This document shows positions 12,757 to 28,895 of a stretch of DNA of 64,000 nt, piece by piece. The notes under the pieces were generated by a model. The model searched no databases. It had not been told where the DNA came from and saw nothing but the letters and a program-made list of their open reading frames with translations. The position numbers and the translations under genes are program-made. This DNA is from Candidatus Zhuqueibacterota bacterium (lineage in GTDB: Bacteria > Zhuqueibacterota > Zhuqueibacteria > Thermofontimicrobiales > Thermofontimicrobiaceae), in NCBI GenBank assembly GCA_049322915.1, contig JBMOPW010000019.1, forward strand, positions 1 to 64,000. The letters run 5' to 3'. The number at the start of each line of letters is the position of its first letter. Positions within the stretch are counted from its first letter, which is position 1.

Positions 12757-13659
12757 ATGAAAATTTCCATCGAATCACTGAGCAAGATTTATTCTAACGG
12801 AAATAAAGCGCTTAACAACATCAATCTGCAAATCGAAAGCGGTATGTTTGGGTTGCTGGGTCCCAACGGCGCCGGCAAAACCACACTGATGCGAATTCTG
12901 GTCACGCTGATGAAACCATCCCACGGCCAGGTAAAAATCGGGGACTTTGATCTGCAGGCCGATCGCCGCGCCATTCGCTCCATGCTGGGCTATCTGCCTC
13001 AGGACTTCCGATTCTTCACCAAGCTGAAAACCTGGGAATTTCTGGATTACGTCGCCAGCCTGGCTGGATTGCACGAATCGCGCGCCCGCAAAAAAGCTGT
13101 CGATGAGATGCTGGAGAAAGTCGGACTCTACGAAGCCAGAGACCGAATGGCCAACCGGCTCTCCGGCGGAATGAAGCGCCGGCTCGGCATTGCCCAGGCC
13201 CTCATTGGCGATCCGAAAATCGTTGTGGTCGATGAACCCACCACCGGTCTCGACCCGGAAGAACGGATTCGATTCCGAAATCTGCTGGCAGAAATGAGCC
13301 AGCGCGATATCATCATCATCCTGTCCACGCACATTGTCGGAGATATTTCCAGCACGTGCAATAACATGGCGCTGCTGAACAATGGCGATCTCGTTTTCAA
13401 TGCGTCGCCGGATAAACTGGTGGAAAAAGCCAAAGGCCATGTCTGGCTCATCGAGGCAATTGACAGCGAACTGGAGGCCATCAAAGAGAAGTTTCCGGTC
13501 ATTGCCACCGTACCTTCCGAAGCCGGCTGGGAAGTTCAGGTCGTCGCTGATAAGCTGGAGGGTTACCCCGGAAAATTGATCGATCCGAATCTGGAACACG
13601 CGTATGTCTATTTTATGGAATTTGAATTAGGGCAATCCTGGAATGGGGATACCCATTGA
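12757..13659 (+). CDS. ABC transporter ATP-binding protein
   Basis: Walker A GPNGAGKT, Q-loop GYLPQ, signature LSGGM, Walker B VVVDEPT, H-loop STH. Confidence 0.97.
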   Translation: MKISIESLSKIYSNGNKALNNINLQIESGMFGLLGPNGAGKTTLMRILVTLMKPSHGQVKIGDFDLQADRRAIRSMLGYLPQDFRFFTKLKTWEFLDYVASLAGLHESRARKKAVDEMLEKVGLYEARDRMANRLSGGMKRRLGIAQALIGDPKIVVVDEPTTGLDPEERIRFRNLLAEMSQRDIIIILSTHIVGDISSTCNNMALLNNGDLVFNASPDKLVEKAKGHVWLIEAIDSELEAIKEKFPVIATVPSEAGWEVQVVADKLEGYPGKLIDPNLEHAYVYFMEFELGQSWNGDTH

Positions 13660-13733: not shown

Positions 13734-16700
13734 ATGTTATCTTTGTATAAAATACTGACCGTCGCGAAATACGAGACCAAAACCCTGTTGAGAAGCTGGT
13801 TCTTCAGAATTTTCGCGCTGCTCTCTATTGCCATATTGACGATTCTCAATATCCCATTTTTCAGCCGTATTGGAGAAACCCCCTGGCTTTTCAGAGGGAT
13901 TTCTTCATCTCTCCCCTACATGAATATTCTGCTCCTCAATGTCGTGCAGGCCATCATTGGCGTCTTTTTAGCCTCCGACTTTTTGAAGCGCGATAAAAAA
14001 CTGGATACGACAGAAGTCATCTACATGCGGTCAATGACGAATGGCGATTATGTCCTCGGCAAAACAGTCGGCATTCTCTTCGTATTTGTGGGACTCAATT
14101 TGATCGTTCTGGCCGTCGCTGCTGTGTTCAACATATTCTTCGCCGATGTCTCCATGACCCCCATAGCCTATCTCTACTATCCGTTGATCATCAGCATTCC
14201 CACGCTGGTCTTCATTTTCGGGCTATCGTTCATGTTCATGGTCATCATCCGCAATCAGGCCATCACGTTCATCGTCCTGTTAGGCTACATTACCACCACC
14301 CTGTTTTTCCTGAGTAAAAAACTCAATTACCTGTTCGATTACATGGCGTTTAATATCCCGCTCCTGTATTCCGATTTCATCGGCTTTGGCAATCTCGGGA
14401 CGATCATCATTCACCGTGGGATTTATTTCAGCCTGGGCATTGGATTCATTTTCGCAACGATTCTCATGATCAAACGCCTGCCGCAATCCAAAGCGATGAC
14501 GCGCATGGCGCTCATCGGCGCCGTTGTTTTTATCGCGCTGGGATTAGTTCTGGGCTGGACATATCTCTCCAATCTCGCTTCCGGCGACAATCTCCGCAGC
14601 GCCATGATTGAATTGAACAAAGCGAATGCCGACCATGCCAAAGTCAAGCCGGTTCAATGGGACATCGCACTTGCCCACGAGAATAAAACCCTGGATGTCG
14701 AGGCGAAACTGACCTTTAAAAATGAGTCAGCCTCCCCAATCGACGAGTATTTGTTCAGTCTGAACCCGGGATTAACGGTAACGAAAATCGCCAATCAATC
14801 CGGCGATTTGACTTTCAAACGTAGCCAGCATCTGATTCAGGTAAAACCAGCGCAGCCCCTTGCTCCCGGCAGCATGGACTCTCTCATCGTTCACTATAAC
14901 GGGATCATTAACGAGCAGGCCTGCTATCTGGACATTGACAGCGAGACGCGCAATCAAAATTACCGCGCCTGGATTTACAATGTGGCCAAACGCTTCAGCT
15001 TCATCGAGCCGGATTATGTGCTGCTCACGCCCGAGACCAACTGGTATCCCATTTCAGGCATCCCGTATGGCTCGTCCTATCCCCGGTCTTCTGATAAATA
15101 TTTCAGTACGTTCAAACTCCGCGTCAAAACGCGGCCGGGGCTTACTCCCATTTCTCAGGGCAAGATGGCGGAAATAACTCCCGGCGAGTATTCATTCGAT
15201 CCGGAATTTCCACTACCCCAGATTTCGCTGACCATCGGCGCCTATGAGAAAAAAGCCATTCGCGTGGATAGCGTCGATTACAGCCTGTACTATCTGAAAG
15301 GGCATGATTATTTCTCGCCGTACTTCAAAGATGTTGGCGATACCCTGTCTGCGCTCATCCGGGAGATGAAGCAGGACTATGAAAATAAACTGAACCTGCC
15401 CTATCTGTACCATCGTCTGTCCCTGGTCGAAGTTCCGATTCAATTTTTCAGCTACCAGCGCATCTGGGCTATCGGCCAGGAAACGATTCAGCCTGAAATT
15501 GCACTGCTCCCGGAAAAAGGGATACTCATGGATCGCGCAGATTTCTCGCGATTCTCACGCTGGCAGGAACGCCGGATGGATCGCAGCAATCAGGTCATCA
15601 CTCCCCAGGAATCGCAAAGCCAGTTCCTCAGCGGATTTGTCAACAGCACGCTGCTGGGCGGATCCCGCGGCGGCGGTTTTGGCATGGGGGAGATACTCAA
15701 TGTCACTGTCAACTACAACCTGTTTCCCAATGTCTATACATTTGTCAATCATTTCAATTCAGAGCGCTGGCCAATTTTCAATATTGCGTTCGAGTCCTAT
15801 TTGTATGAACAATCCACCGAGCAGGGGCCATCTTTCCGGCGATTCTTCACCGGCCTGAGCGACGAGGAGAAAGCCAATCTGGCGTTGAGCAAACAGACCC
15901 TGGCTGACATTCTCGTCGATCCGGAACAGAAGGACATCATCAATCAGGTGCTGAAACTGAAAGGCGCCTATTTATTCAAGCTCATTCAAAGCAAATTGGA
16001 TACGGAGTCGTTCGAAAAATTCGTCGCTCATTTGCTTCAATCAAATCGATTCAAAGATATACGAGTGAGTCAGGTTGTTGAAGAAATGAAAAGCCAATTC
16101 AATTACGACATCGAACCGGAATTCAACAACTGGTATCAGAGCAAGCAACTGCCTGCATTTCTGTTCGGAAGTATCGAAGCTTACAAAGTGCTGGATAACG
16201 ACCGCACCCGATTCCAGGTGTTTTTCAAAGTGACAAACCAGGAAGCCATCGACGGTATTATCTCCACAACCTTCAGGATGGGCGGACGCGGCCCCATGTT
16301 TGGATTTGGCGGCATGGATCAACCTGAAGAAAAAGTGTACAGCATCAAAGGCGGCCAGACCATTGAAGTGGGCGTTGTTCTTGATGAAGAGCCGCACATG
16401 ATGGAAATCAACACGCTCATTTCCAAAAACCTCCCGTCCATCAAGACGCATCGGTTCGAAGAGCTTGAAATGAAAGAGAGAGTCGTTCCCTTCGATGGAG
16501 TGAAAATACTGGACGCGCCAATCCAGTTGGCTCTGCCCGGCGAAATCATTGTCGACAATGAAGACCCTGGCTTCGAAGTGCTCTCAAAACCAACGCAGAG
16601 TTTCCTGAAAAAGTTGTTTAAAAAGAAAACCCCGGAAGACGAAGAGCAATATATTGGCTATAATTTCTGGAATCCGCCCTCTGACTGGAGACCCACGACA

Positions 16701-17075
16701 TTTTCGGATTTTTATGGCAAATACATCCAGTCAGCTTACTACATCAAAAAAGGAAGCGGCGACAAGAAAGTCGCCTGGAAAACTGAGTTATCCGAGAGCG
16801 GCACGTTTGATGTCTTTTACTATGTTTCCAAAATGGAAATGCGCTGGGGACGGCGCGAAGACAGAGGACGCGACGTTGATTACGGTCAATTCCATTTCCT
16901 GATTCACCACGACGATGGCGTCGATGACGCTCTGCTCGATATTGACAAAGCCGAAATGGGCTGGAATTTCCTCGGAACCTATTACATTTCCAAAGGCGAA
17001 ACGCGGATCGAATTGACCGATGAGGCCAAGGGGCGCATCGTCTTTGCCGACGCGATCAAGTGGGTGAAAAAATAG
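13734..17075 (+). CDS. ABC-2-type permease fused to a degenerate M1-aminopeptidase-like domain and a C-terminal golvesin/Xly-type carbohydrate-binding-like domain
   Basis: About 7 N-terminal TMs with RDKKLDTTEVIYMRSMTNGDYVLGK; M1-like LTPETNWYP, KGAYLF, FNNWY..QLP; tail IVDNEDPGF..GWNFLGTY..VFADAIKW. Confidence 0.8.
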   Translation: MLSLYKILTVAKYETKTLLRSWFFRIFALLSIAILTILNIPFFSRIGETPWLFRGISSSLPYMNILLLNVVQAIIGVFLASDFLKRDKKLDTTEVIYMRSMTNGDYVLGKTVGILFVFVGLNLIVLAVAAVFNIFFADVSMTPIAYLYYPLIISIPTLVFIFGLSFMFMVIIRNQAITFIVLLGYITTTLFFLSKKLNYLFDYMAFNIPLLYSDFIGFGNLGTIIIHRGIYFSLGIGFIFATILMIKRLPQSKAMTRMALIGAVVFIALGLVLGWTYLSNLASGDNLRSAMIELNKANADHAKVKPVQWDIALAHENKTLDVEAKLTFKNESASPIDEYLFSLNPGLTVTKIANQSGDLTFKRSQHLIQVKPAQPLAPGSMDSLIVHYNGIINEQACYLDIDSETRNQNYRAWIYNVAKRFSFIEPDYVLLTPETNWYPISGIPYGSSYPRSSDKYFSTFKLRVKTRPGLTPISQGKMAEITPGEYSFDPEFPLPQISLTIGAYEKKAIRVDSVDYSLYYLKGHDYFSPYFKDVGDTLSALIREMKQDYENKLNLPYLYHRLSLVEVPIQFFSYQRIWAIGQETIQPEIALLPEKGILMDRADFSRFSRWQERRMDRSNQVITPQESQSQFLSGFVNSTLLGGSRGGGFGMGEILNVTVNYNLFPNVYTFVNHFNSERWPIFNIAFESYLYEQSTEQGPSFRRFFTGLSDEEKANLALSKQTLADILVDPEQKDIINQVLKLKGAYLFKLIQSKLDTESFEKFVAHLLQSNRFKDIRVSQVVEEMKSQFNYDIEPEFNNWYQSKQLPAFLFGSIEAYKVLDNDRTRFQVFFKVTNQEAIDGIISTTFRMGGRGPMFGFGGMDQPEEKVYSIKGGQTIEVGVVLDEEPHMMEINTLISKNLPSIKTHRFEELEMKERVVPFDGVKILDAPIQLALPGEIIVDNEDPGFEVLSKPTQSFLKKLFKKKTPEDEEQYIGYNFWNPPSDWRPTTFSDFYGKYIQSAYYIKKGSGDKKVAWKTELSESGTFDVFYYVSKMEMRWGRREDRGRDVDYGQFHFLIHHDDGVDDALLDIDKAEMGWNFLGTYYISKGETRIELTDEAKGRIVFADAIKWVKK

Positions 17076-17143: not shown

Positions 17144-18634
17144 ATGAAACGTAAAAACCAAGCGGCAATAATCCACGCCTCACTGATTTTGGCGGTACTT
17201 TTGTGTCTCAGCATGACCAGTCCGTCCTATTCCCAGGAACCAATAACCGTGGAGCGAGCGCTGAGTATCGCGTCCAAAAATAGTCCGGACATTCGCAAAT
17301 CCGAGTTGAATCTGGAACGAAGCCAGCAATCGCTCAATGCACAGAAGGCTTCGCTCAAATCCAGTTTCAGCTTAACCCTGACGCCGTTCGATTACGAAAA
17401 GACACGGCAGTTCAACACGTTCTTTTCAACCTGGAACACCAGCGAGAACAAACAATCGTCCGGCACATTCACCATTGCCCAGCCCATCAGTTGGACCGAT
17501 GGCACCTTCGCCATTTTCAATCGGTTTGGCTGGCAGGATTCCTACAGCGAATACCAGGATGTGCGCACCAAATCGTTCAGCAATAATCTCTACCTGAATT
17601 TTCAACAGCCGATCTTCACATACAATCGGACCAGGCTGACATTGAAGGAGTTGGAACTGGACCTCGAAAATACCTCGCTGAGCTATGCCATGCAAAAACT
17701 GAATCTGGAGCGAGATGTCACCGAGGCGTTTTTCACGGTCTACCAGAACAAGATGAGCCGGGAAATCGCCATCGATGAATTTCACAACCGCGAGCAGAGT
17801 TACAATATCATCAAGAACAAGGTAGAAGCCGGGCTGGCTGCTCAGGAAGAGTTGTATCAGGCTGAATTGGACATGGCGAGCAGCAAGTCCAACGTGCAGA
17901 ATACGCAGGTTGCGCTGGACAATTCTCTGGATGCATTCAAACAGTTGATCGGATTATCCCTGTTCGACGACATCACCGTCACCGCGGATGTATCGCATCA
18001 GACAGTGGAAATCGATATGCAAAAAGCGCTGGATCATGGTTTGAAGCACCGGATGGAATTGCGGCAGCGCCAGATCGAGATCGAGAACTCGACGTTCGAT
18101 TTAATTCAGACTTCTGCGACCAATGAATTCAAAGGCAATATCGATCTATCCTATGGCATCATTGGCACGGATGAAGAATTCGAGAAAATGTACGAAGTGC
18201 CGACGCGCAATCAGCGATTGGCGCTGTCCGTGGATATTCCATTATTCGATTGGGGCGCCAAGAAAATGCGCATCAAAGCGTCCGAGGCTGTGGTGAAGTC
18301 GCGCGAGTTATCGTTAGAAGACCAAAAAAACACCATCATCATCGGCGTTCGGCAGGCGTATCGCAATCTGAATAACCTGGTTCAGCAGATAGAAATCGCC
18401 AGGCAGAATCTGCGCAATGCGCAATTGACCTATGACATCAACCTGGAGCGCTACAAAAATGGCGACCTGACCAGTATGGATTTGAATCTGTATCAGAATC
18501 AGCTTTCAGAAAAAAAGAAGGGGCATGTCGAAGCCCTGATCAATTACAAAATAGCCTTGCTGAATATGAAGATTCAATCGCTGTGGGATTTTGAGCAAAA
18601 TAAAGCTGTCGTTCCTGAATTGTCCGAGAAGTAG
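17144..18634 (+). CDS. TolC-family outer membrane factor
   Basis: Signal peptide; ASKNSPDI, LSVDIPLFDWG, ERYKNGDLTSMDL; two-fold helical repeat. Confidence 0.93.
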   Translation: MKRKNQAAIIHASLILAVLLCLSMTSPSYSQEPITVERALSIASKNSPDIRKSELNLERSQQSLNAQKASLKSSFSLTLTPFDYEKTRQFNTFFSTWNTSENKQSSGTFTIAQPISWTDGTFAIFNRFGWQDSYSEYQDVRTKSFSNNLYLNFQQPIFTYNRTRLTLKELELDLENTSLSYAMQKLNLERDVTEAFFTVYQNKMSREIAIDEFHNREQSYNIIKNKVEAGLAAQEELYQAELDMASSKSNVQNTQVALDNSLDAFKQLIGLSLFDDITVTADVSHQTVEIDMQKALDHGLKHRMELRQRQIEIENSTFDLIQTSATNEFKGNIDLSYGIIGTDEEFEKMYEVPTRNQRLALSVDIPLFDWGAKKMRIKASEAVVKSRELSLEDQKNTIIIGVRQAYRNLNNLVQQIEIARQNLRNAQLTYDINLERYKNGDLTSMDLNLYQNQLSEKKKGHVEALINYKIALLNMKIQSLWDFEQNKAVVPELSEK

Positions 18635-18760
18635 CGCGGCGCAGGACATGGTTCAGTGAATCGACTTGTAAAACGCGCGGTTCAACGTTCGGCAAACCGC
18701 GGGTTCACTCATAATATAAAAATTTATTGACTGTTGAAATTTAAATGTAAGGAGTTCATT

Positions 18761-19810
18761 GTGAGATCAGGACTAATTTTGCTGATTGGCCTCGTTCTGT
18801 TAGTAAGCTGCGGTGATCCCGGCGCTGATTCCAGCACCGAAATTGCCGTGCCGGTTTCTGTCGAGGAAGTGCAATATAAACCCATCGAAGAATTCATCGC
18901 CACGACAGGGACTGTCTACGCCATGAAAGAGGCGACGATAACCTCGGAAACTTCAGGCTATTACCGACTGGCCAACAATCCGCGGACAAAACGACCATTC
19001 GCCCTGGGCGATGCGGTGAACAGGAACGAGGTAGTGATTTATCTGGACAATCCGGAATATGAAAACACGACGCGGATCGAATCCCAGAAATTGAACCTGG
19101 ATATTTCCAAAAGCGAATTCGAGAAGCAGAAATCCCTGTTCGATAAAGGCGGCGTCACATTTCGTGAAATGAAGAATGCGGAAAAAACCTATATCGATGC
19201 GCAATACAGCTACGACAATGCCGTCATTCAATTGGCCAAGCTGAAAATAACCGCCCCGTTCGAAGGCATCATCATTGATATTCCCTACTTCACGCAGGGC
19301 ACGAAGGTCGCAGCGAATCAGACTATGCTTCAGGTGATGAACTATCAGCAATTATGGATGGACGTCAGCTTGCCGGGAAAAGAACTGGGCCGCATTCGCG
19401 TCGGCAATAGTGTGCGCGTCATGAATTACACGCTGCCAGACGATACGTTGAAGGGGCAAATCACCCAGACTTCACCAGCGTTAGACCCGAACACCCGGGC
19501 GTTCAAAGCTAGCCTGAGCATCGATAATGCCGGCCTGCTGCTTCGTCCGGGCATGTTCGTGAAAAGCGAAATTATCGTGGCGAGTAAGGACAGCGCCATT
19601 GTGATCCCCAAAGACATTATCCTGTCCAAACGCCGCGGCAAGACGGTGTTCATCGTTGAAAAAGGCGCTGCTGAAGAACGCGCAATCAGCACCGGTCTGG
19701 AAAATCCGGAATTTGTTGAAGTGACCGAAGGGCTCAAAGTGGATGAGCGACTTGTGATTAAAGGCTTTGAAACGCTTCGCAACCGGTCCAAGGTGAAAAT
19801 CATCCGGTAA
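18761..19810 (+). CDS. RND periplasmic adaptor (MFP), lipoprotein
   Basis: GGAG then GTG at 18761; lipobox LVSC; ITAPFEGII, PALDPNTR, LRPGMFV, VEVTEGL. Confidence 0.93.
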   Translation: MRSGLILLIGLVLLVSCGDPGADSSTEIAVPVSVEEVQYKPIEEFIATTGTVYAMKEATITSETSGYYRLANNPRTKRPFALGDAVNRNEVVIYLDNPEYENTTRIESQKLNLDISKSEFEKQKSLFDKGGVTFREMKNAEKTYIDAQYSYDNAVIQLAKLKITAPFEGIIIDIPYFTQGTKVAANQTMLQVMNYQQLWMDVSLPGKELGRIRVGNSVRVMNYTLPDDTLKGQITQTSPALDPNTRAFKASLSIDNAGLLLRPGMFVKSEIIVASKDSAIVIPKDIILSKRRGKTVFIVEKGAAEERAISTGLENPEFVEVTEGLKVDERLVIKGFETLRNRSKVKIIR

Positions 19811-20143: not shown

Positions 20144-23100
20144 ATGAGAAAACTAACAGAATTTTCAGTCAATTATCCGGTTACCATATTGATGCTCGTC
20201 CTGGCCGTATTGCTGCTTGGCTTCATTTCTTTCGAAAAGCTGGGGATCGATCTATTTCCGGATTTGAATAATCCCCGCATCTTCGTCGAACTGAAAGCCG
20301 GCGAACGTCCGCCGGATGAAATAGAGAGCCAATTCGTCGAGCGGATCGAATCGCTGGCCATTCGGCAAAAAAAAGTCATTCAAGTCTCCTCCATCATCCG
20401 CGTGGGCACGGCCCAGATTACGGTTGAATACGGCTGGGACGCCGATATGGACGAGGCTTTCCTTGACCTGCAAAAAACGCTGACCAGCTTCGGCCAGAAC
20501 GCCGAGATCGACGAAATGATCATTTCACAGCACGATCCAAATGCTTCGCCGGTGATGTTGTTAGGCCTTTCCAATGAGCAAATCACCGATATGGATGAAT
20601 TGCGCCGCGTTGCTGAAAACTACCTCCGCAACGAGCTCATCCGGCTCGAGGGAATCGCTGAAGTTGAGTTGCTGGGCCAGGAAGAAAAAGAAGTCGTGAT
20701 TGAGACCAACAATTATCTGATGGAAGCTTACGGTCTGACTCCGGCGACCATTGCCAACCGCATCCGAAATTACAATCGGAATTCGTCCGGCGGATCGATT
20801 GTCGAAATGGGATTGAAATATGTCATTAAAGGTGTCGGTGAATTTCAGTCGCTGGACGATATCGGGAATGTCATTGTCGCCTATAAAACGCACCAAAGCG
20901 CAACCGCCACTGGAACAGCGGTAGATCAGGTGAGCCAGCGCGTGCCGGTCTATTTGAAAGATGTGGCCACGCTGAGTTTAAAAAACAAAGACCCGGAAAA
21001 TATTGTCCGAATCAATTCGACGCGGTGTATGGGGCTGGCCATTTACAAGGAGACCAAATTCAATACAGTCAAAGCAGTCGACGATCTGCTCAATGCGCTC
21101 GAAGAGCTGCGCAAGGCATTGCCCGGCTACTCCATCACGGTGATACAGAATCAGGGTGAGTTCATCAAACAGGCAGTGGATGAAGTGAAGCAGACAGCCC
21201 TCATCGGCGCGCTTCTCGCTGTAGTTGTCCTGTTTATCTTTCTGCGCCGAATTGGCGTCACCACCATCATCAGTGTCGCCATTCCCATTTCGGTAATTGC
21301 CACATTCAATCTCATGTTTTTCAAAGGGCTCACCATTAATGTCATGACATTGGGAGGGTTGGCGCTCGGCGCCGGCATGTTGGTGGACAATGCCATTGTA
21401 GTCATGGAAAATATATTTCAAAAACTGGAGTCCGGCCATTCGCTCCGGGAAGCATCCGTACTTGGGACGAGTCAGGTAGCTACAGCCATCACGTCTTCAA
21501 CCATCACGACGATCGTGGTCTTTCTGCCGATTGTGTACCTTCATGGCTCGGCTGGCGAGTTGTTCAAAGATCAGGCCTGGACCGTGGCGTTCTCGCTTTT
21601 GTCCTCGCTGGTGGTCGCCATCCTGGTAATCCCCATGCTGAGTTCCCGCTTTCTAAAAGGTTTTGCTGCCAGAGAGGAGCAAAAAATTGCCTCACTAAGA
21701 TTTCTCTGGTACAGATCGTTTCTATCGCGCGTGCTTGATCGGCGCTGGACTGTCATTTCAGTCGCAGTGGTACTCATTGTCGCTGCGGTTCTGTTAATAC
21801 CGATCATCGGGAGCGAATTCGTCCCCAGAACCGATCTGAACGAATTCTCCATCGAAATGACTCTGCCTGAAGGCACGGAGCTGGCTCGGACGGAGCAGAC
21901 CGTTGATAATATCGAAAACATTGTCCGCAGCATTCTGGGCGATGAGATTCACACGATTTACAGCCAGATCGGCCCTACAACCGATTTGACCGTCGACGCC
22001 AATGCCGTTTTTGAAGATGAAAATACGGCCACGACAAAAATAATCCTCAAGCCGGATCACAAAATTTCATCGCAACAAGTCATCGCGCAGATAGGCCGGG
22101 CGCTGGAGGATATTCCGGATCTGGAAACGCAATTCATCCAGGAGCAATCCGCGCTGCAGACCACTCTGGGCACCGAGGTCGCCCCCATCCTGGTCGAAAT
22201 CAAAGGTGACGAGATGGAGGTAATTCAGCAACTGACCGAACAGGTGAAGCAAAAAATGCTGGAGATGGCGGACCTGTTCAATGTGGAAAGCAGTTTTGAT
22301 GAAGGGCGCCCGGAAATTGACATAAAGCTCGACCGCGTCCAGGCCGGCATTTACAATCTCAATATTGAGTCAATCACCTCCGAACTGGAAGCGCAACTGG
22401 CCGGCACTACAGCCGGTCAATGGGAAAACGAAGGCGAACTGCAGGACATTACCATCAAGGTGCCGGACATCAGCGTGGGGCAGATAGACGATATTGTCAT
22501 CAACAGCGGCGAGCAGAAAATACGGCTGGATGAAATCGCCACTATCCAATTGACTTCTGCGCCAAAGGAAATTAAGCGCAAAAATCAGGTGCGAATTGGC
22601 ACTATCTCGGCCCATTTAAAAACCAAAAAGCCATTTGACCATGTTGTCAGCCAGATTAAAAAGCAGTTGCAGCAAATTGATTTTCCAGCGGATTACAAAT
22701 TCGAGATAACCGGTGAAGAGCAAAAACGCCAGGAATCATTTTCCAATTTGAAGTTCGCTCTGATCCTTTCCATCATTCTCGTATACATGGTATTGGCTTC
22801 GCAATTCGAATCGTTGCTGCACCCATTCACCATCATCCTCACCATTCCACTGGCAATTGTGGGGACGATTTTCCTGTTCTTCTTCACAGGCCAGACGTTC
22901 AACATGATGGCCTATACCGGCATTATCATGTTGGGTGGCATTGCAGTGAACAACTCCATCCTGCTCGTCGATGCCATCACCCAATTGAGGCAGGAAGGTT
23001 TCGCGCTGCGGGATTCCATTGTTGAAGCCGGACAGCGTCGCATTCGCCCGATTCTCATGACGAGTCTCACGACCATTTTGGCAATGCTGCCGCTAACGTT

Positions 23101-23239
23101 CGGTTTCGGAGAAGGCGCGGCCTTGCGCTCGCCTATGGCAATTGCCGTTGTCGGTGGGTTGGTGACATCGACGCTGATGTCGCTGATTTTTATTCCCTGC
23201 GTTTACTATGTTGTCGAACTGTGGCGTGGAACAAAATAG
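20144..23239 (+). CDS. RND efflux permease (AcrB/MdtB-like)
   Basis: 1031 aa, 12-TM layout; GMLVDNAIVVMEN, LASQFES..HP, RIRPILMT, PMAIAVVGG. Confidence 0.96.
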   Translation: MRKLTEFSVNYPVTILMLVLAVLLLGFISFEKLGIDLFPDLNNPRIFVELKAGERPPDEIESQFVERIESLAIRQKKVIQVSSIIRVGTAQITVEYGWDADMDEAFLDLQKTLTSFGQNAEIDEMIISQHDPNASPVMLLGLSNEQITDMDELRRVAENYLRNELIRLEGIAEVELLGQEEKEVVIETNNYLMEAYGLTPATIANRIRNYNRNSSGGSIVEMGLKYVIKGVGEFQSLDDIGNVIVAYKTHQSATATGTAVDQVSQRVPVYLKDVATLSLKNKDPENIVRINSTRCMGLAIYKETKFNTVKAVDDLLNALEELRKALPGYSITVIQNQGEFIKQAVDEVKQTALIGALLAVVVLFIFLRRIGVTTIISVAIPISVIATFNLMFFKGLTINVMTLGGLALGAGMLVDNAIVVMENIFQKLESGHSLREASVLGTSQVATAITSSTITTIVVFLPIVYLHGSAGELFKDQAWTVAFSLLSSLVVAILVIPMLSSRFLKGFAAREEQKIASLRFLWYRSFLSRVLDRRWTVISVAVVLIVAAVLLIPIIGSEFVPRTDLNEFSIEMTLPEGTELARTEQTVDNIENIVRSILGDEIHTIYSQIGPTTDLTVDANAVFEDENTATTKIILKPDHKISSQQVIAQIGRALEDIPDLETQFIQEQSALQTTLGTEVAPILVEIKGDEMEVIQQLTEQVKQKMLEMADLFNVESSFDEGRPEIDIKLDRVQAGIYNLNIESITSELEAQLAGTTAGQWENEGELQDITIKVPDISVGQIDDIVINSGEQKIRLDEIATIQLTSAPKEIKRKNQVRIGTISAHLKTKKPFDHVVSQIKKQLQQIDFPADYKFEITGEEQKRQESFSNLKFALILSIILVYMVLASQFESLLHPFTIILTIPLAIVGTIFLFFFTGQTFNMMAYTGIIMLGGIAVNNSILLVDAITQLRQEGFALRDSIVEAGQRRIRPILMTSLTTILAMLPLTFGFGEGAALRSPMAIAVVGGLVTSTLMSLIFIPCVYYVVELWRGTK

Positions 23240-23405: not shown

Positions 23406-26400
23406 ATGAATATTATCCAGTTTGCTATCAAACGAAAAACATTCATCAGCATGCTTTTCATCATGCTTTGCTTATTGGGATATGTTTCCTACAAGCAGTT
23501 GCCGGTGGAACTATTTCCCAGTGCGGATTTGCCCTTTCTGATTGTCCAGGTTACCGGCATGAGGGAGATGGATCCGGATTACATGGAGAAACAGGCCGTC
23601 ATCCCGCTGGAGGGCGCCATTTCGACGCTGGAGGGAATTGATCAAATTGAATCCACGGTTAATTCCCGGAATTGTATGATCACGGTATCCTACAATCAGA
23701 ACGTGAAAATTAAATATGCCTATTTGCGCTTGCAGGAAAAAGTGAACACTGTGAAGAGCACGCTGGGCGATGAATTTTCCGTGAATGTCGTCAAGATTGA
23801 CACCGAGCTGCTGGCCAATATGTTCATGTCATTGCAGGTTCGCGGCGAAGGAGGAGTCGATCGGGTGCGGCAGATCGCTGACAAAGAGATTGTCCAGGAG
23901 CTGGAAAATATCGACGGTATCGCCAATGTGGAAATTTTCGGCGGTCGCGCGAAATCCGTGGAAATTATTCTTAATGAAGAAGCCTGCCGCGCTCACCGGA
24001 TCACTGCGGCTCAGATACAATCGCTGATTGCCAGCAACAACAGCAGCAAAACCTATCTGGGTCAGGTGTACGATAAAAACAAACACTACGTTGTGAACCT
24101 CGTGGCCGATTATACCGATGTCCATGACCTGGAAAATATCGTCATCAACCGCACCGGCCCGGTCCTCCTCAAAGACATTGCCGATGTGTTCGTCGGTTCG
24201 AAAGAAGAAGAATCCCTGAGCCGGGTCAATGGGAAAGAGGCGATTACAGTTCAGTTGGTTCGGGATACCCAGGTGAATCTGATTGAACTGTCGCACACTA
24301 CGCGCGCGGCCATTGATCGGCTGAATGAAGAACTGGCGCCGCAAGGCATCGAGATTGTGATTCAGAGCGATACAGCCGAGGACATGGAGCGGAACATCGA
24401 CCTGATCAAGGAATTGGCGCTGATTGGCGGTCTGCTGGCCATTATGATTCTATATTTTTTCCTGCGTCATTTGCAACTGGTAATTGTCATTGCCTTTGCA
24501 ATTCCAATCTCCGTATTCACCGCATTTAATTTCTTCTACGCATACGACATCACACTCAACAGCCTCACGCTTGTCGGACTTGCACTGGCTGTTGGGATGC
24601 TGCTGGATAACAGCGTCGTCGTGCTTGAAAATATCTACCGCCTCACGGCAGCCAATAAGGATCCGGATACGGCTGTGGTCCAAGGCACCAATCAGGTCTG
24701 GCGGTCTATTTTCGCCTCGACGCTGTCCACAGTGACGGTCTTTCTGCCGTTCATTTTTTCCAATGAATATATTGTCAGGACTATTGGTCTTCACGTGGGT
24801 GTTTCCATTATCTCCACGCTGATCGTCTCCTTTTTTGTCGCGTTGTTGCTCATCCCGGTTGCCACGCACTGGTTCCTGACCCGGAAGAAAAATGTGAACC
24901 TGGAGAGCCTGAACTTCAATGTGGTCTCCGCCAAGAATCGACTGATTCAGATCTACCGCGTGTTCTTGAAGTCCACCATCCGTTTCCCGGCGCGGACAAT
25001 TTTAGGGGCATGGATATTCTTTTTCCTCAGCATCATTCTGTGTTTCGCGCTGAGTTTGAATGTGTCTCGTGAAGCCGAATTGAAGGATTTCAACCTCTAC
25101 GTGACAATGCCCAGCGGCGCCACGCTCGACGCCACGGACGCAGTCACCGCAGAGTTGGAAGAGCGTCTCGCCGACATCAAAGAGAAGCAGGATGTTGTCA
25201 GCCAGATTTACGAAGAAGAGGCCATCCTCAATGTCAAGCTAAAAGACGACTACGAGAAAATCGACGGCCGCACCATTGCCCAGGTGAAAAGTGAGATACA
25301 AAATCGGCTGAACGACTTCCACGCTGCCGAGGTGAGTTTTGAGCAGCCCACAGCCAGCCGGCGTTTTGGCGGTGGCAGATCCGGCGGCGGTAACCAGGCC
25401 ATGCGAATGGAGCGAATGCTGGGTATCGGCGCGCAGACAGAGACGATCAAAATCAAAGGCCGGGATTTCGACATGATGCGGAATGTCGCCGAAGAAATTC
25501 GCTATTATCTGGAAGACCTGTCTTCCATGCGGCGCGTGAATTTGAACATCGCCGACAATCGGCCGGAAATACACCTGTTGTTCGATACGGAACTGATGAG
25601 TCATTACGATGTGCCGATTTCATCCATCACATCCGAATTGGCCGGCTTCCAAAACGAGTTCACGTCCGGCATGACCTACAAACAGGGGACCGATGAATAC
25701 GACATCGTAATCCGAAATGAAAATCTCGAAGATAAAACCATCAATGATTTGAAAACGCTTCGCATCCAGTCTCAATCGGAGGGGCTGTTCGAGCTGGATC
25801 AATTGAGCCGCATCGTCTACTCTTTCGGACTGTCAGGCATCAATCGCATCAATCAGGAAAAAGAGATCGAAGTGACTTTCCAATTCCTCGACGAAGTGAA
25901 TGAATCCAAATCCGTGCTGGAAAAGTCGCGGATGGAAGTCGATCAAATCATCGCCAATATGCAAATCCCGGCTGGCATTGCTGTCGAAATTATACACGAA
26001 GACACCTCCGAATTGCAGGAATTCTATTTCCTCATCGCTGCGGCTTTCATTCTGATCTACATGATCCTCGCCTCAGTGTTCGAATCGCTGGCAACGCCGG
26101 TGGTGATGATGTTCACCATTCCACTGGCAGCCATCGGCTCGTTCTGGGCGCTGATTCTGACCGGGAACTCCCTCATCAACGTCAATTCCCTGATCGGATT
26201 TTTAATTCTGCTGGGGCTGGTCGTCAATAATGGTATCATCCTCATCGACTATACCCGCATACTGCGAAACCAGGGCTACGATCGGTCTCGCGCGCTCATC
26301 ATGGCTGGCCAGGCGCGGGTGCGACCTATTTTAATCACCAGTATCACCACCATCATCGCCATGCTGCCCCTGGCGCTGGGAAAAGCCGAGTATGTGACGC

Positions 26401-28133
26401 AGATTGGCGCTCCCTTCGCCATCACAGTGATTGGCGGCCTGTCGCTCAGCACGCTGTTCACGCTGGTGTTCATTCCGACCTTTTACTCCGGTTTCGAAAG
26501 TTCGCTCATCTGGCTGAACCAATTGAACTGGAAAACCAAAGCAATCCAGATTTTCGTTTTCGCCGCTGGTTCTGCGCTCATTTACTACAACATTGATAGC
26601 CTCATCTGGCGTTTCATCACCCTGTTTGCCATTATCGTTTTAATTCCCGGCACCACCTATTTCATCATGACCAGCTTGCGTCAGGCCAGGGCCGACTATA
26701 TCAAGCCGACTGAATCGCTGCGCATTACGATCAAACACGTCGTTAAAATTTATGAAGATAGCTCCCGGTTTGTCAAGGAATGGAACAAAGGACACATCAT
26801 TCAGGAGCACGCCGGGCTCACAAAGAAATACACCTCGTGGCGGGACCTGGATTCGCTCGTCTGGCAAATTCCTGTCATCGGGTTTCTGATTTATTTCACC
26901 TATTTTTATCAGCGCAATTTTTTCTGGGCATTGGTCTTCTCCAGCGGCATTTACTTTTTGGCCCTTGTCGCCTGGCGTCCCGTGCTATTGTATTTCCAGA
27001 ACACGCGCGACCCCAACGCCCGTTCGTTCCGAATGAAACTGATTGACCTGCTGCAGCCGCTCTTCTTCTGGGGCTTCCCGGCAGTCAATTTAATTATCTA
27101 TTACCTGAAATGGAAAAATCTGGCGATTGTCATTTTCCTCGCCGTGGTCTGGTATCTGGCGCTATCTATTTACACTACATCGAATCAGCTCCACAAGCAC
27201 AAAGTGAACATCATGCGACTCACGGGCCGATTCGCCGGACTGCGCCGGGCCTTCTACCAGTTTGTTCAGATCATCCCGGTCATTGGCAAAAAGAAAACGC
27301 CTTTCCGCGCGCTGGATGGTGTGTCGTTAGAAATTGGCAGCGGCATGTTCGGTCTGCTGGGACCCAATGGCGCCGGCAAAACAACCCTGATGCGAATCAT
27401 CTGCGGCATCCTCGAACAAACGCGCGGGACCATCTGGATCAACGATATCGATTTGAAAGACAAACGGGAAGAGTTACAGGGACTGATCGGGTATCTGCCA
27501 CAGGAGTTCGGGACATACGAGAACATGACCGCGTTCGAATTTCTGAATTATCAGGCTATTCTCAAAAATATTTATGACAAAGAGGAACGGGAAAAACGAG
27601 TCGATTTCTGCATCAATTCTGTGCATCTTGAAAAGAATAAAAATCAAAAAATCGGCTCATTCTCCGGCGGCATGAAACAGCGAATTGGCATTGCCCAGAC
27701 GCTGCTGCACCTGCCCCGCATTTTAGTCGTGGATGAGCCAACTGCCGGACTGGACCCGCGCGAGCGAATTCGTTTCAGAAATCTGCTTGTGGAATTGAGC
27801 CGGGAGCGCATTGTCATTTTCTCGACGCACATCATCGAAGATATCTCCAGTTCATGCAATAAAGTCGCTGTGCTCAACCGGGGAAAACTCTGCTATCTGG
27901 GCGATCCCCAGGAGATGACCAAGAGCGCGGAAGGCTTCGTCTGGCAGTTTCACATCGCCACAAAAGAGTTCGAGGAGCGGCAAAAGGACCTCTGGATTGT
28001 CCATCACATGCGCGATGGAGAGAGTATCCGCGTGCGGTGTCTGTCCGGCAGCAAGCCTGATCCGGAAGCCCAGGAAGTGCGTCCGACCCTGGAAGACGCC
28101 TATCTCTGGCTGTTGCGAAAGTCAAGTAGTTAA
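23406..28133 (+). CDS. RND permease fused to extra TM helices and an ABC ATPase domain
   Basis: Continuous 1575-aa ORF: aa 1 to ~1030 RND (GMLLDNSVVVLEN, RVRPILIT); C-terminal NBD with GPNGAGKT, FSGGM, LVVDEPT, STH. Confidence 0.93.
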   Translation: MNIIQFAIKRKTFISMLFIMLCLLGYVSYKQLPVELFPSADLPFLIVQVTGMREMDPDYMEKQAVIPLEGAISTLEGIDQIESTVNSRNCMITVSYNQNVKIKYAYLRLQEKVNTVKSTLGDEFSVNVVKIDTELLANMFMSLQVRGEGGVDRVRQIADKEIVQELENIDGIANVEIFGGRAKSVEIILNEEACRAHRITAAQIQSLIASNNSSKTYLGQVYDKNKHYVVNLVADYTDVHDLENIVINRTGPVLLKDIADVFVGSKEEESLSRVNGKEAITVQLVRDTQVNLIELSHTTRAAIDRLNEELAPQGIEIVIQSDTAEDMERNIDLIKELALIGGLLAIMILYFFLRHLQLVIVIAFAIPISVFTAFNFFYAYDITLNSLTLVGLALAVGMLLDNSVVVLENIYRLTAANKDPDTAVVQGTNQVWRSIFASTLSTVTVFLPFIFSNEYIVRTIGLHVGVSIISTLIVSFFVALLLIPVATHWFLTRKKNVNLESLNFNVVSAKNRLIQIYRVFLKSTIRFPARTILGAWIFFFLSIILCFALSLNVSREAELKDFNLYVTMPSGATLDATDAVTAELEERLADIKEKQDVVSQIYEEEAILNVKLKDDYEKIDGRTIAQVKSEIQNRLNDFHAAEVSFEQPTASRRFGGGRSGGGNQAMRMERMLGIGAQTETIKIKGRDFDMMRNVAEEIRYYLEDLSSMRRVNLNIADNRPEIHLLFDTELMSHYDVPISSITSELAGFQNEFTSGMTYKQGTDEYDIVIRNENLEDKTINDLKTLRIQSQSEGLFELDQLSRIVYSFGLSGINRINQEKEIEVTFQFLDEVNESKSVLEKSRMEVDQIIANMQIPAGIAVEIIHEDTSELQEFYFLIAAAFILIYMILASVFESLATPVVMMFTIPLAAIGSFWALILTGNSLINVNSLIGFLILLGLVVNNGIILIDYTRILRNQGYDRSRALIMAGQARVRPILITSITTIIAMLPLALGKAEYVTQIGAPFAITVIGGLSLSTLFTLVFIPTFYSGFESSLIWLNQLNWKTKAIQIFVFAAGSALIYYNIDSLIWRFITLFAIIVLIPGTTYFIMTSLRQARADYIKPTESLRITIKHVVKIYEDSSRFVKEWNKGHIIQEHAGLTKKYTSWRDLDSLVWQIPVIGFLIYFTYFYQRNFFWALVFSSGIYFLALVAWRPVLLYFQNTRDPNARSFRMKLIDLLQPLFFWGFPAVNLIIYYLKWKNLAIVIFLAVVWYLALSIYTTSNQLHKHKVNIMRLTGRFAGLRRAFYQFVQIIPVIGKKKTPFRALDGVSLEIGSGMFGLLGPNGAGKTTLMRIICGILEQTRGTIWINDIDLKDKREELQGLIGYLPQEFGTYENMTAFEFLNYQAILKNIYDKEEREKRVDFCINSVHLEKNKNQKIGSFSGGMKQRIGIAQTLLHLPRILVVDEPTAGLDPRERIRFRNLLVELSRERIVIFSTHIIEDISSSCNKVAVLNRGKLCYLGDPQEMTKSAEGFVWQFHIATKEFEERQKDLWIVHHMRDGESIRVRCLSGSKPDPEAQEVRPTLEDAYLWLLRKSSS

Positions 28134-28172: not shown

Positions 28173-28895
28173 ATGGACTTAAAAACAAAACTTTTAAACA
28201 TCTTCGATCTGTTGTCAAAACTGATTCGCTATAATCTGAAAATCATTTTCGCCAACAAATTCATTTACATGCTGCTCTCGGCGTTGGCGATTTTCATCCT
28301 GGTGACAGTCATCATGCTGTTCGATGAAAATTCCAATCCCGATGTCGGCTCGGTGTACTACTTGCTCCTCGTGCCGGGGCTGCTGCTCATTTTCTACCCG
28401 ACCACGTTCGGCATCCAGAATGACGTGGACGCCCGCATGCTGGAAATACTGTTTGGGATTCCGAACTACCGCTATAAAATCTGGCTGGTTCGCGTGATCA
28501 TCATTTACATTGGCGTCTTTTTCATCCTGCTTCTGCTGGGCATACTCAGCTCGATTGCCCTCACGTCGATCCCGATTTTCTCGATGGTGGTTCAACTCAT
28601 GTTCCCGATCTTCTTTTTGGGCAGCCTGGCGTTTTTATTTTCGACGCTGATCCGCAATGGGTACGGAACCGCAGTGGTGATCATCATCATCGGCCTCGTC
28701 TTCTGGATCGCCGGCGGGATTTTATCCAACACAAAATGGAATATCTTTCTCAATCCATTCGACATTCCCTCCGATGTCAATGAAGTGATCTGGCAGAATA
28801 TTACAACCAACAATCGGATCATTCTGCTCGTCGGGACTGTGGTCGCAATTTTATGGGGTTTGCTGAATCTGCAGAAGCGGGAGAAGTTTGTGTAA
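28173..28895 (+). CDS. ABC-2-type permease (6 TM)
   Basis: Six hydrophobic segments; coupling-helix-like NDVDARMLEILFGIP; FLFSTLIRNG; FLNPF. Confidence 0.75.
   Translation: MDLKTKLLNIFDLLSKLIRYNLKIIFANKFIYMLLSALAIFILVTVIMLFDENSNPDVGSVYYLLLVPGLLLIFYPTTFGIQNDVDARMLEILFGIPNYRYKIWLVRVIIIYIGVFFILLLLGILSSIALTSIPIFSMVVQLMFPIFFLGSLAFLFSTLIRNGYGTAVVIIIIGLVFWIAGGILSNTKWNIFLNPFDIPSDVNEVIWQNITTNNRIILLVGTVVAILWGLLNLQKREKFV

Follow-up and report, generated by a model that had tools for sequence, protein, structure and literature searches.

The operon and its fusion gene

The window, by which we mean the whole 64,000-nucleotide stretch of DNA analysed, carries on its + strand a co-oriented run of genes: a free ABC ATPase (12757–13659), a 1113-aa permease (13734–17075), a TolC-like outer membrane factor (OMF; 17144–18634), a periplasmic adaptor (MFP; 18734–19810, above the cut-off of TIGR01730), a plain RND permease paralogue (20144–23239), an RND-ABC fusion gene in sixth place (23406–28133) and a six-helix permease of 240 aa (28173–28895). 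The fusion is a single open reading frame of 1575 aa, and its relatives of about 1570 aa carry both Pfam domains. It is made up of an RND permease, two extra helices, strand β1 of the NBD with the A-loop residue Tyr1116, a 180-aa four-helix insert and a motif-complete ABC remainder.

The RND permease occupies aa 1–1028 (23406–26489) and covers positions 1–1018 of the 1021 in PF00873 (Pfam domain at aa 3–1028), with MdtB (9lyq) as its best PDB match. It is followed by a linker hairpin, predicted TM13–TM14, at aa 1042–1095 (26529–26690; from hydropathy, and helical in the models), by β1 with the A-loop (26718–26756), and by a conserved cytoplasmic helix of motif RFxREW straight after the A-loop (26766–26810), where Wzt has its gate helix. 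The first inserted hairpin (predicted TM15–TM16; 26838–27002) and the second (predicted TM17–TM18; 27027–27200), both drawn from hydropathy and the models, are joined by a cytoplasmic loop (27003–27041) whose variability is seen in alignment gaps and a spread of lengths, and in which the gene is broken in some relatives. A basic amphipathic helix and an IPxIGKKKxP loop (27234–27302), supported by conservation and the model, then lead back to β2. The remainder of the NBD from β2 on (27303–28130) holds Walker A (27360), the Q-loop (27501), the signature (27660), Walker B (27720) and the H-switch (27828), followed by a C-terminal extension. Pfam places the ABC domain at aa 1303–1447, and no domain of Pfam or NCBIfam matches aa 1105–1301.

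The fused NBD matches PF00005 over its full length, and its best NCBIfam models are GldA and DrrA. In a family alignment of 127 sequences, with identities as low as about 30%, the key residues of Walker A, Q-loop, signature, Walker B Asp-Glu, D-loop and H-switch are present in 122–127 rows, and the catalytic Glu, Gln and His in all 127. Judged by its sequence, the fused NBD keeps all its catalytic motifs. Its fold with a C-terminal extension resembles the DrrA/GldA/NosF-type ABC-2 ATPases (TM_1403, 4yer; TM0544, 1vpl), although each of those is a soluble subunit of one domain in which the β1-β2 turn is short.

In its layout the RND part matches the HAE1/MdtABC type: a full-length 12-TM permease with two periplasmic domains, accompanied by an MFP and an OMF. 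The MdtABC pump is built on an MdtB2C trimer, and the locus resembles MdtABC-TolC and MuxABC-type pumps in having an OMF, an MFP and two tandem RND genes. Those pumps come without an ABC module, however, and the NCBIfam scores of both RNDs here are well short of the cut-offs. The proton relay of the AcrB/MdtB type comprises two Asp in TM4, a Lys in TM10, and an Arg and a Thr in TM11. Where MdtB has D-D and K-N, the RNDs here have D-N and N-N; the fusion (D-N in TM4, N-N in TM10, RxRP..T in TM11) departs from this type of relay, as two of the relay residues are Asn. Its relatives carry D-N in 101/110, N-N in 82/110 (26 are without a motif match) and RxRP..T in 109/110. Among the five unfused RNDs encoded outside the operon in this genome, D-N and N-N are each found in four, with no motif match in the others. 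Hence, the pattern is not special to the fusion, and we discarded relay loss as specific evidence for ATP drive.

The small permease shows six hydrophobic peaks and the large one seven; in the latter, a putative ABC-2-like membrane domain is joined to a large periplasmic part ending in Golvesin_C. Pfam ABC2_membrane_3 matches 11 of 42 small-permease members weakly, and the Atlas places the small permease in an automatically named ABC-2 cluster at 0.99. The window's own copy gives no Pfam ABC-2 match, and neither permease gives a PDB match. Aligned with each other over 158 columns, the two reach a pairwise E of 0.0011 at a probability of only 20%. At the level of sequence, these are weak indications that both permeases are ABC-2-like. 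Type V exporters have two six-helix membrane domains, arranged as a homo- or heterodimer (PMC8386196). The two NBDs and two membrane domains of the operon would thus be enough for one heterodimeric type V exporter, beside a full RND-MFP-OMF set. The free ATPase is the likely dimer partner of the fused NBD, and the 240-aa permease the likely membrane partner of one NBD. The periplasmic part of the large permease (13734–17075) spans about 820 aa with its Golvesin_C domain, has neither an HExxH motif nor a PDB sequence relative, and may be the cargo-binding part.

The arrangement recurs. Across 16 loci of about 17–22 kb, the small permease lies directly 3′ of the fusion in 15/16, as does the plain RND directly 5′ of it, and three further Bacteroidota loci keep the same order (3/3). 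Within one order of the phylum the arrangement is less strict, and the small permease does not adjoin the fusion gene in two genomes (G142 and G147). Two local rearrangements were also seen: in G149 (L113) the fusion gene and small permease are oriented away from the other five genes, and in G159 the fusion gene is separated from the small permease by an additional, incomplete copy of the NBD C-terminus (L164:4955-5593).

The displaced first strand and the inserted helices

The A-loop aromatic of an ABC ATPase normally lies about 25 residues upstream of Walker A. In the free ATPase, Tyr12 is found 23 residues upstream of Walker A and 6 upstream of the Ala of AL; in the fusion, the corresponding distances of Tyr1116 (26751–26753) are 203 and 186 residues, a clear departure from the usual spacing. 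The insert is therefore exactly 180 aa long. The segment that corresponds to the free ATPase's start, a strand ending in KIY, is LRITIKHVVKIYE (aa 1105–1117, 26718–26756, with Lys1114 at 26745–26747), and the domain resumes with ALDGVSLEIGSG only at aa 1302 (27309); both positions are those given in the original prediction, and they hold. BLASTP aligns the free ATPase with the fused NBD at 42% identity, starting only at residue 17 of the former.

A profile of β1 and the A-loop was trained on 61/80 unrelated intact ATPases and scanned over the whole upstream protein. Its best match falls 185–235 aa upstream of Walker A in 130/132 full-length fusions, with a mean score of 14.7 at the displaced site versus 2.0 within 60 aa of Walker A. 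Among 119 close relatives, the β1 pattern occurs 180–260 aa upstream of Walker A in 118, and no candidate for β1 or the A-loop aromatic occurs within 60 aa of it in any. In the 127-sequence alignment, Lys1114 is the sole invariant column upstream of the NBD core, and position 1116 holds Tyr in 124 rows and Phe in the other 3; the KIY motif is conserved in relatives. Pfam's ABC model begins downstream of β1, and hence the split is not visible in annotation; domain scans miss displaced strands of this kind.

For the C-terminal 577 aa, AlphaFold2 with an input of 57 sequences produced a model (pLDDT 85.6, pTM 0.69) with strands at aa 1107–1116 and 1300–1310, four long helices in between, and a helix at aa 1121–1135 straight after the A-loop. 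Model residues 107–573 superpose on residues 2–239 of TM0544 (1vpl) with Z 29.1 and an rmsd of 1.5 Å over 235/238 residues, and residues 107–510 on residues 2–228 of LptB with Z 27.9 and an rmsd of 1.9 over 223/230. Given that nearly the whole target is aligned, the displaced segment must be what aligns with the target's first strand; this pairing was judged from aligned ranges and residue counts rather than from coordinates. The predicted model contains a complete NBD fold including β1, with strand 1107–1116 superposing on the first strand of intact NBDs, and not the opposite outcome of an NBD complete from residues after about 1285 with the KIY strand elsewhere. When the insert was folded as a control without the NBD, the segment aa 1107–1116 became coil. 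AlphaFold may have set an NBD-like strand there through likeness to solved NBDs. The displaced β1 and the A-loop Tyr are thus predicted by the model to fold into the NBD around the insert. With the coordinates, the spacing, the profile test and the model all bearing out the proposed interruption by some 180 aa, we hold with high confidence that the fused ATPase is an NBD split between β1 and β2.

Family-averaged hydropathy shows six peaks past TM12, two of which precede β1 (1049 and 1070) and four of which follow the A-loop (1151, 1172, 1216 and 1239). Lys plus Arg number 0.2–1.3 in the predicted periplasmic turns versus 3–15 in the cytoplasmic loops. The peaks together with this positive-inside pattern lead to a predicted topology of 18 TMs with a cytoplasmic NBD, in agreement with the count of about 18 first put forward. 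Pro1081 in TM14 keeps a fixed distance of 34 residues from β1 (range 30–35, SD 0.5). A Foldseek comparison of the insert with known folds returned nothing at E 0.001 or better, and a wide structure search gave unrelated helical bundles with a best Z of 8.0, a result that shows neither kinship nor a new fold; several of the weak helical-bundle matches cover both sides of the central loop. We rejected the idea of a cryptic ABC-2 membrane domain, as the insert has no profile likeness to either operon permease.

Distribution and natural fission of the split domain

A word-seeded search with aa 1030–1330 as query returned 2530 proteins, a total that may include matches to the flanks alone; 118 of the best 120 of these matches carry both RND and ABC Pfam domains. 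The sources named for some of the matches are KSB1, Calditrichaeota, Latescibacterota, Gemmatimonadota, Krumholzibacteriota and Bacteroidota. Fusion matches occur in 62/167 genomes of the window's phylum (52 strong, 10 weak) and in 4/401 sampled genomes of the phylum of a Bacteroidales record, that genome counted in. An assembly or read-through artefact is ruled out by the strong matches in 52/167 genomes, which are mostly frames of about 1570 aa. A contig-wide genome scan yielded one true relative among 80 loci, the others being ordinary ABC ATPases. Within the insert, R1121, E1125, W1126, W1153, W1174, W1222 and W1249 are kept in 115–120 of 121 sequences. The cassette as a whole also has a second, deeply separated subfamily (L111-L114, L124-L129, L164-L166), which retains the split-NBD layout; its RND part is about 32% identical to the window's, and the insert is only 22–30% identical between the two subfamilies. 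Among the best 150 representatives of the insert elsewhere, the long matches are RND-sized fusions and the rest are fragment-like or cover the NBD start only. In plasmids no match covering the insert was found, and its sequence is absent from the Atlas.

The RND-ABC hybrid with a split NBD is real and conserved. Among the papers listed in searches of the open-access literature, none concerned an RND-ABC fusion or a membrane-spanning NBD insertion, and no such fusion is described in the sections consulted of a review of tripartite pumps (PMC8277102). The variant of the ABC NBD in this hybrid is apparently undescribed.

In some relatives the gene is split within the insert, at least two times independently, with three genomes (G160, G163 and G147) supporting this at the DNA level. 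In G160 and G163, a stop codon closes the reading frame past the first inserted hairpin. Non-coding DNA separates it from a matching new start, which opens another ORF for the second hairpin and the NBD without β1. The non-coding DNA at the break differs between these two genomes. In G147, three contigs are involved: one with the operon, which the first half closes, one with the second half and one with the small permease. The stop of the first half and about 130 bases beyond recur in a 95%-identical small contig of another assembly (G140:C77, L128). In all three genomes β1 remains on the RND chain. The break lies in the loop with the most variable length.

A 17-row tree places G160 and G163 as sisters and G147 as sister to the intact G142, both at 100/100, and a single origin of fission appears in 0/200 bootstrap trees. 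Of the database proteins that start in the loop, P0202, P0274 and P0289 group with G160 (99/98) and P0281 with G147 (100/99). In the order of G160, 15/29 genomes match, with 3 split, 11 intact in frame and 1 truncated where its contig ends. Every case of fission seen is from a metagenome-type assembly within a single order of one phylum, and belongs to the second subfamily. Between G160 and G163, dS is 0.51, and dN/dS is 0.054 for the RND core, 0.14 for the stretch that follows it, 0.146 over the 27 codons around β1, and 0.12 for the second half, of which the G163 copy is cut by a contig end; intact genes compared with each other give similar values of 0.116 and 0.125. By these sequence-based ratios (0.05–0.15), both halves are under purifying selection in this pair, a result that speaks for each half being kept and not for binding of one to the other.

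Several other breaks were not counted. In G085 (L123:4945-9649), a frameshift just after β1 leaves overlapping frames and the congener G086 is intact, so that it is probably a sequencing error. G140:C77 is a near copy of G147 on a 2.4-kb contig in a genome that has its own intact gene, and is probably a binning contaminant. P0275 and P0287 are close to intact genes, and the break in G126 was also left out. As side observations, the central loop of intact close relatives of the split genes (L165:13290-18083 and P0283) already contains a Met close to where the new start lies, and internal starts may precede fission; and, by eye, a different inverted repeat appears in the fission-point non-coding DNA of each genome (L127:5050-5212 and L126:565-604).

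In those lineages, then, the insert need not be one unbroken chain. Judging from the sequences, it is simplest to suppose that both hairpins likely meet in the membrane and that the NBD likely forms from two chains. CFTR provides a parallel, for when it is severed in the same loop (1-414 + 433-1480) it works from two chains with almost normal ATP gating (PMC2217481), as the fissions here would imply for the fusion.

Possible roles of the insert

We favour, with modest confidence, the view that the insert is a membrane clamp which ties the fused ATPase to the RND and to an ABC-2 partner, and so tethers an exporter to a pump. The fused NBD would dimerise with the free ATPase, and both ATPases would drive a heterodimeric type V exporter, in which the 240-aa permease would pair with the membrane domain of the 1113-aa one; the cargo would then pass to the RND pair, adaptor and TolC for expulsion. 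TM13–14 would tie β1 to the RND, and the inserted hairpins would hold both ends of the β1-β2 loop together at the membrane, which would explain why the chain can be cut between them. In split lineages, the RND chain would donate β1 and the adenine-stacking Tyr in trans. The cargo may be a lipid or amphiphilic envelope compound, a guess from the type V and RND families in general.

The original prediction likened the insert to the CFTR regulatory insertion. The analogy stands for position, since the insertions of CFTR NBD1 (404–435) and ABCG2/5/8 occupy the same site (PMC2217481, PMC5065228); however, they are soluble, mobile and 20–40 aa long, whereas that of the fusion is conserved, helical and, by the model, membrane-embedded. 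A closer precedent is the gate helix of Wzt, a β1-β2 extension that packs on the membrane domain and moves about 8 Å on ATP binding (PMC6379404). As in the Wzt/TarH-type ATPases of that source, the extension here lies beside the adenine-stacking Tyr; it is predicted to reach the membrane and would have type V-like membrane partners. Their gate helix stays at the water-lipid interface, and the loop that holds it has a few tens of residues; in the fusion, the loop exceeds the usual length by 180 aa, is predicted to span the membrane four times and is joined to an RND. The fused NBD also differs from Wzt in its subfamily and in having no Wzt_C domain. In a comparison with four Wzt sequences no loop homology was detected: β1 alone aligns (6.8%), with 0.06% for the post-A-loop helix. 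The Wzt-type ATPases of relatives (L175-L178) have β1-β2 loops of several tens of residues and of variable length. Given that the Wzt gate helix is in the same loop, it is plausible that the insert moves as well; on ATP binding, it would probably move with the ATP-binding lobe, acting first on the ABC membrane domains.

A stronger claim, which we regard as possible but doubtful, is that the RND subunit forms part of the ATP site, to which it would donate β1 and the Tyr either in cis or in trans: the motor would be complete only when docked through the clamp, and ATP binding would be relayed via β1 to the RND membrane domain. If true, an RND-MFP-TolC pump would be licensed or driven by ATP.

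Direct mechanical coupling, the idea of the original prediction, in which movement of β1 and the insert pulls on TM13–14 and drives or gates the RND cycle of a partly ATP-powered pump, seems to us unlikely, and less likely than the clamp. The shift of the Wzt gate helix (PMC6379404) would suit it, as would the fixed spacing between Pro1081 and β1 and the retention of β1 on the RND chain even after fission. The two Asn at AcrB-type relay positions would also suit it, but they recur in most unfused RNDs of this genome; moreover, the operon holds what look like ordinary ABC membrane domains for the ATPases, and one lever on one protomer is ill-suited to trimer rotation. With its own putative ABC-2-type domains, a second ATPase and, in some lineages, a chain that can be cut within the insert, the system has coupling to the RND as just one option.

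The insert could instead handle cargo, as an enlarged, membrane-embedded gate helix. It would recruit a lipid-linked substrate or hand it over from the ABC membrane domains to the RND groove, with tethering secondary. We find this rather improbable: the loop is the one that holds the gate helix of Wzt and teichoic-acid ATPases (PMC6379404), and conserved Arg, Trp and Tyr lie near the interface, but beyond β1 there is no sequence likeness to the four Wzt loops (the 0.06% probability above, from a thin control), the NBD groups with DrrA and GldA, and the insert drifts between subfamilies. Finally, that the KIY strand is a look-alike or relic outside an NBD that works without β1 or is inactive is highly improbable: strand pairing is a prediction and Phe1300, conserved in 119/121, offers another aromatic near Walker A, but the motif's invariance across the family, the profile test, the model with its no-NBD control and the intact catalytic residues all stand against it.

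The usual view of ABC ATPase domains is that they are soluble modules and contact the membrane only via the coupling helices of other domains, and RND transporters are thought to run on ion gradients. Here, the ABC domain is itself predicted to loop through the membrane and is fused to an RND, and nature offers a two-chain version of it. Because the halves of the split version can be separated for expression, mutation and recombination, a hand-over from ABC to RND is directly testable.
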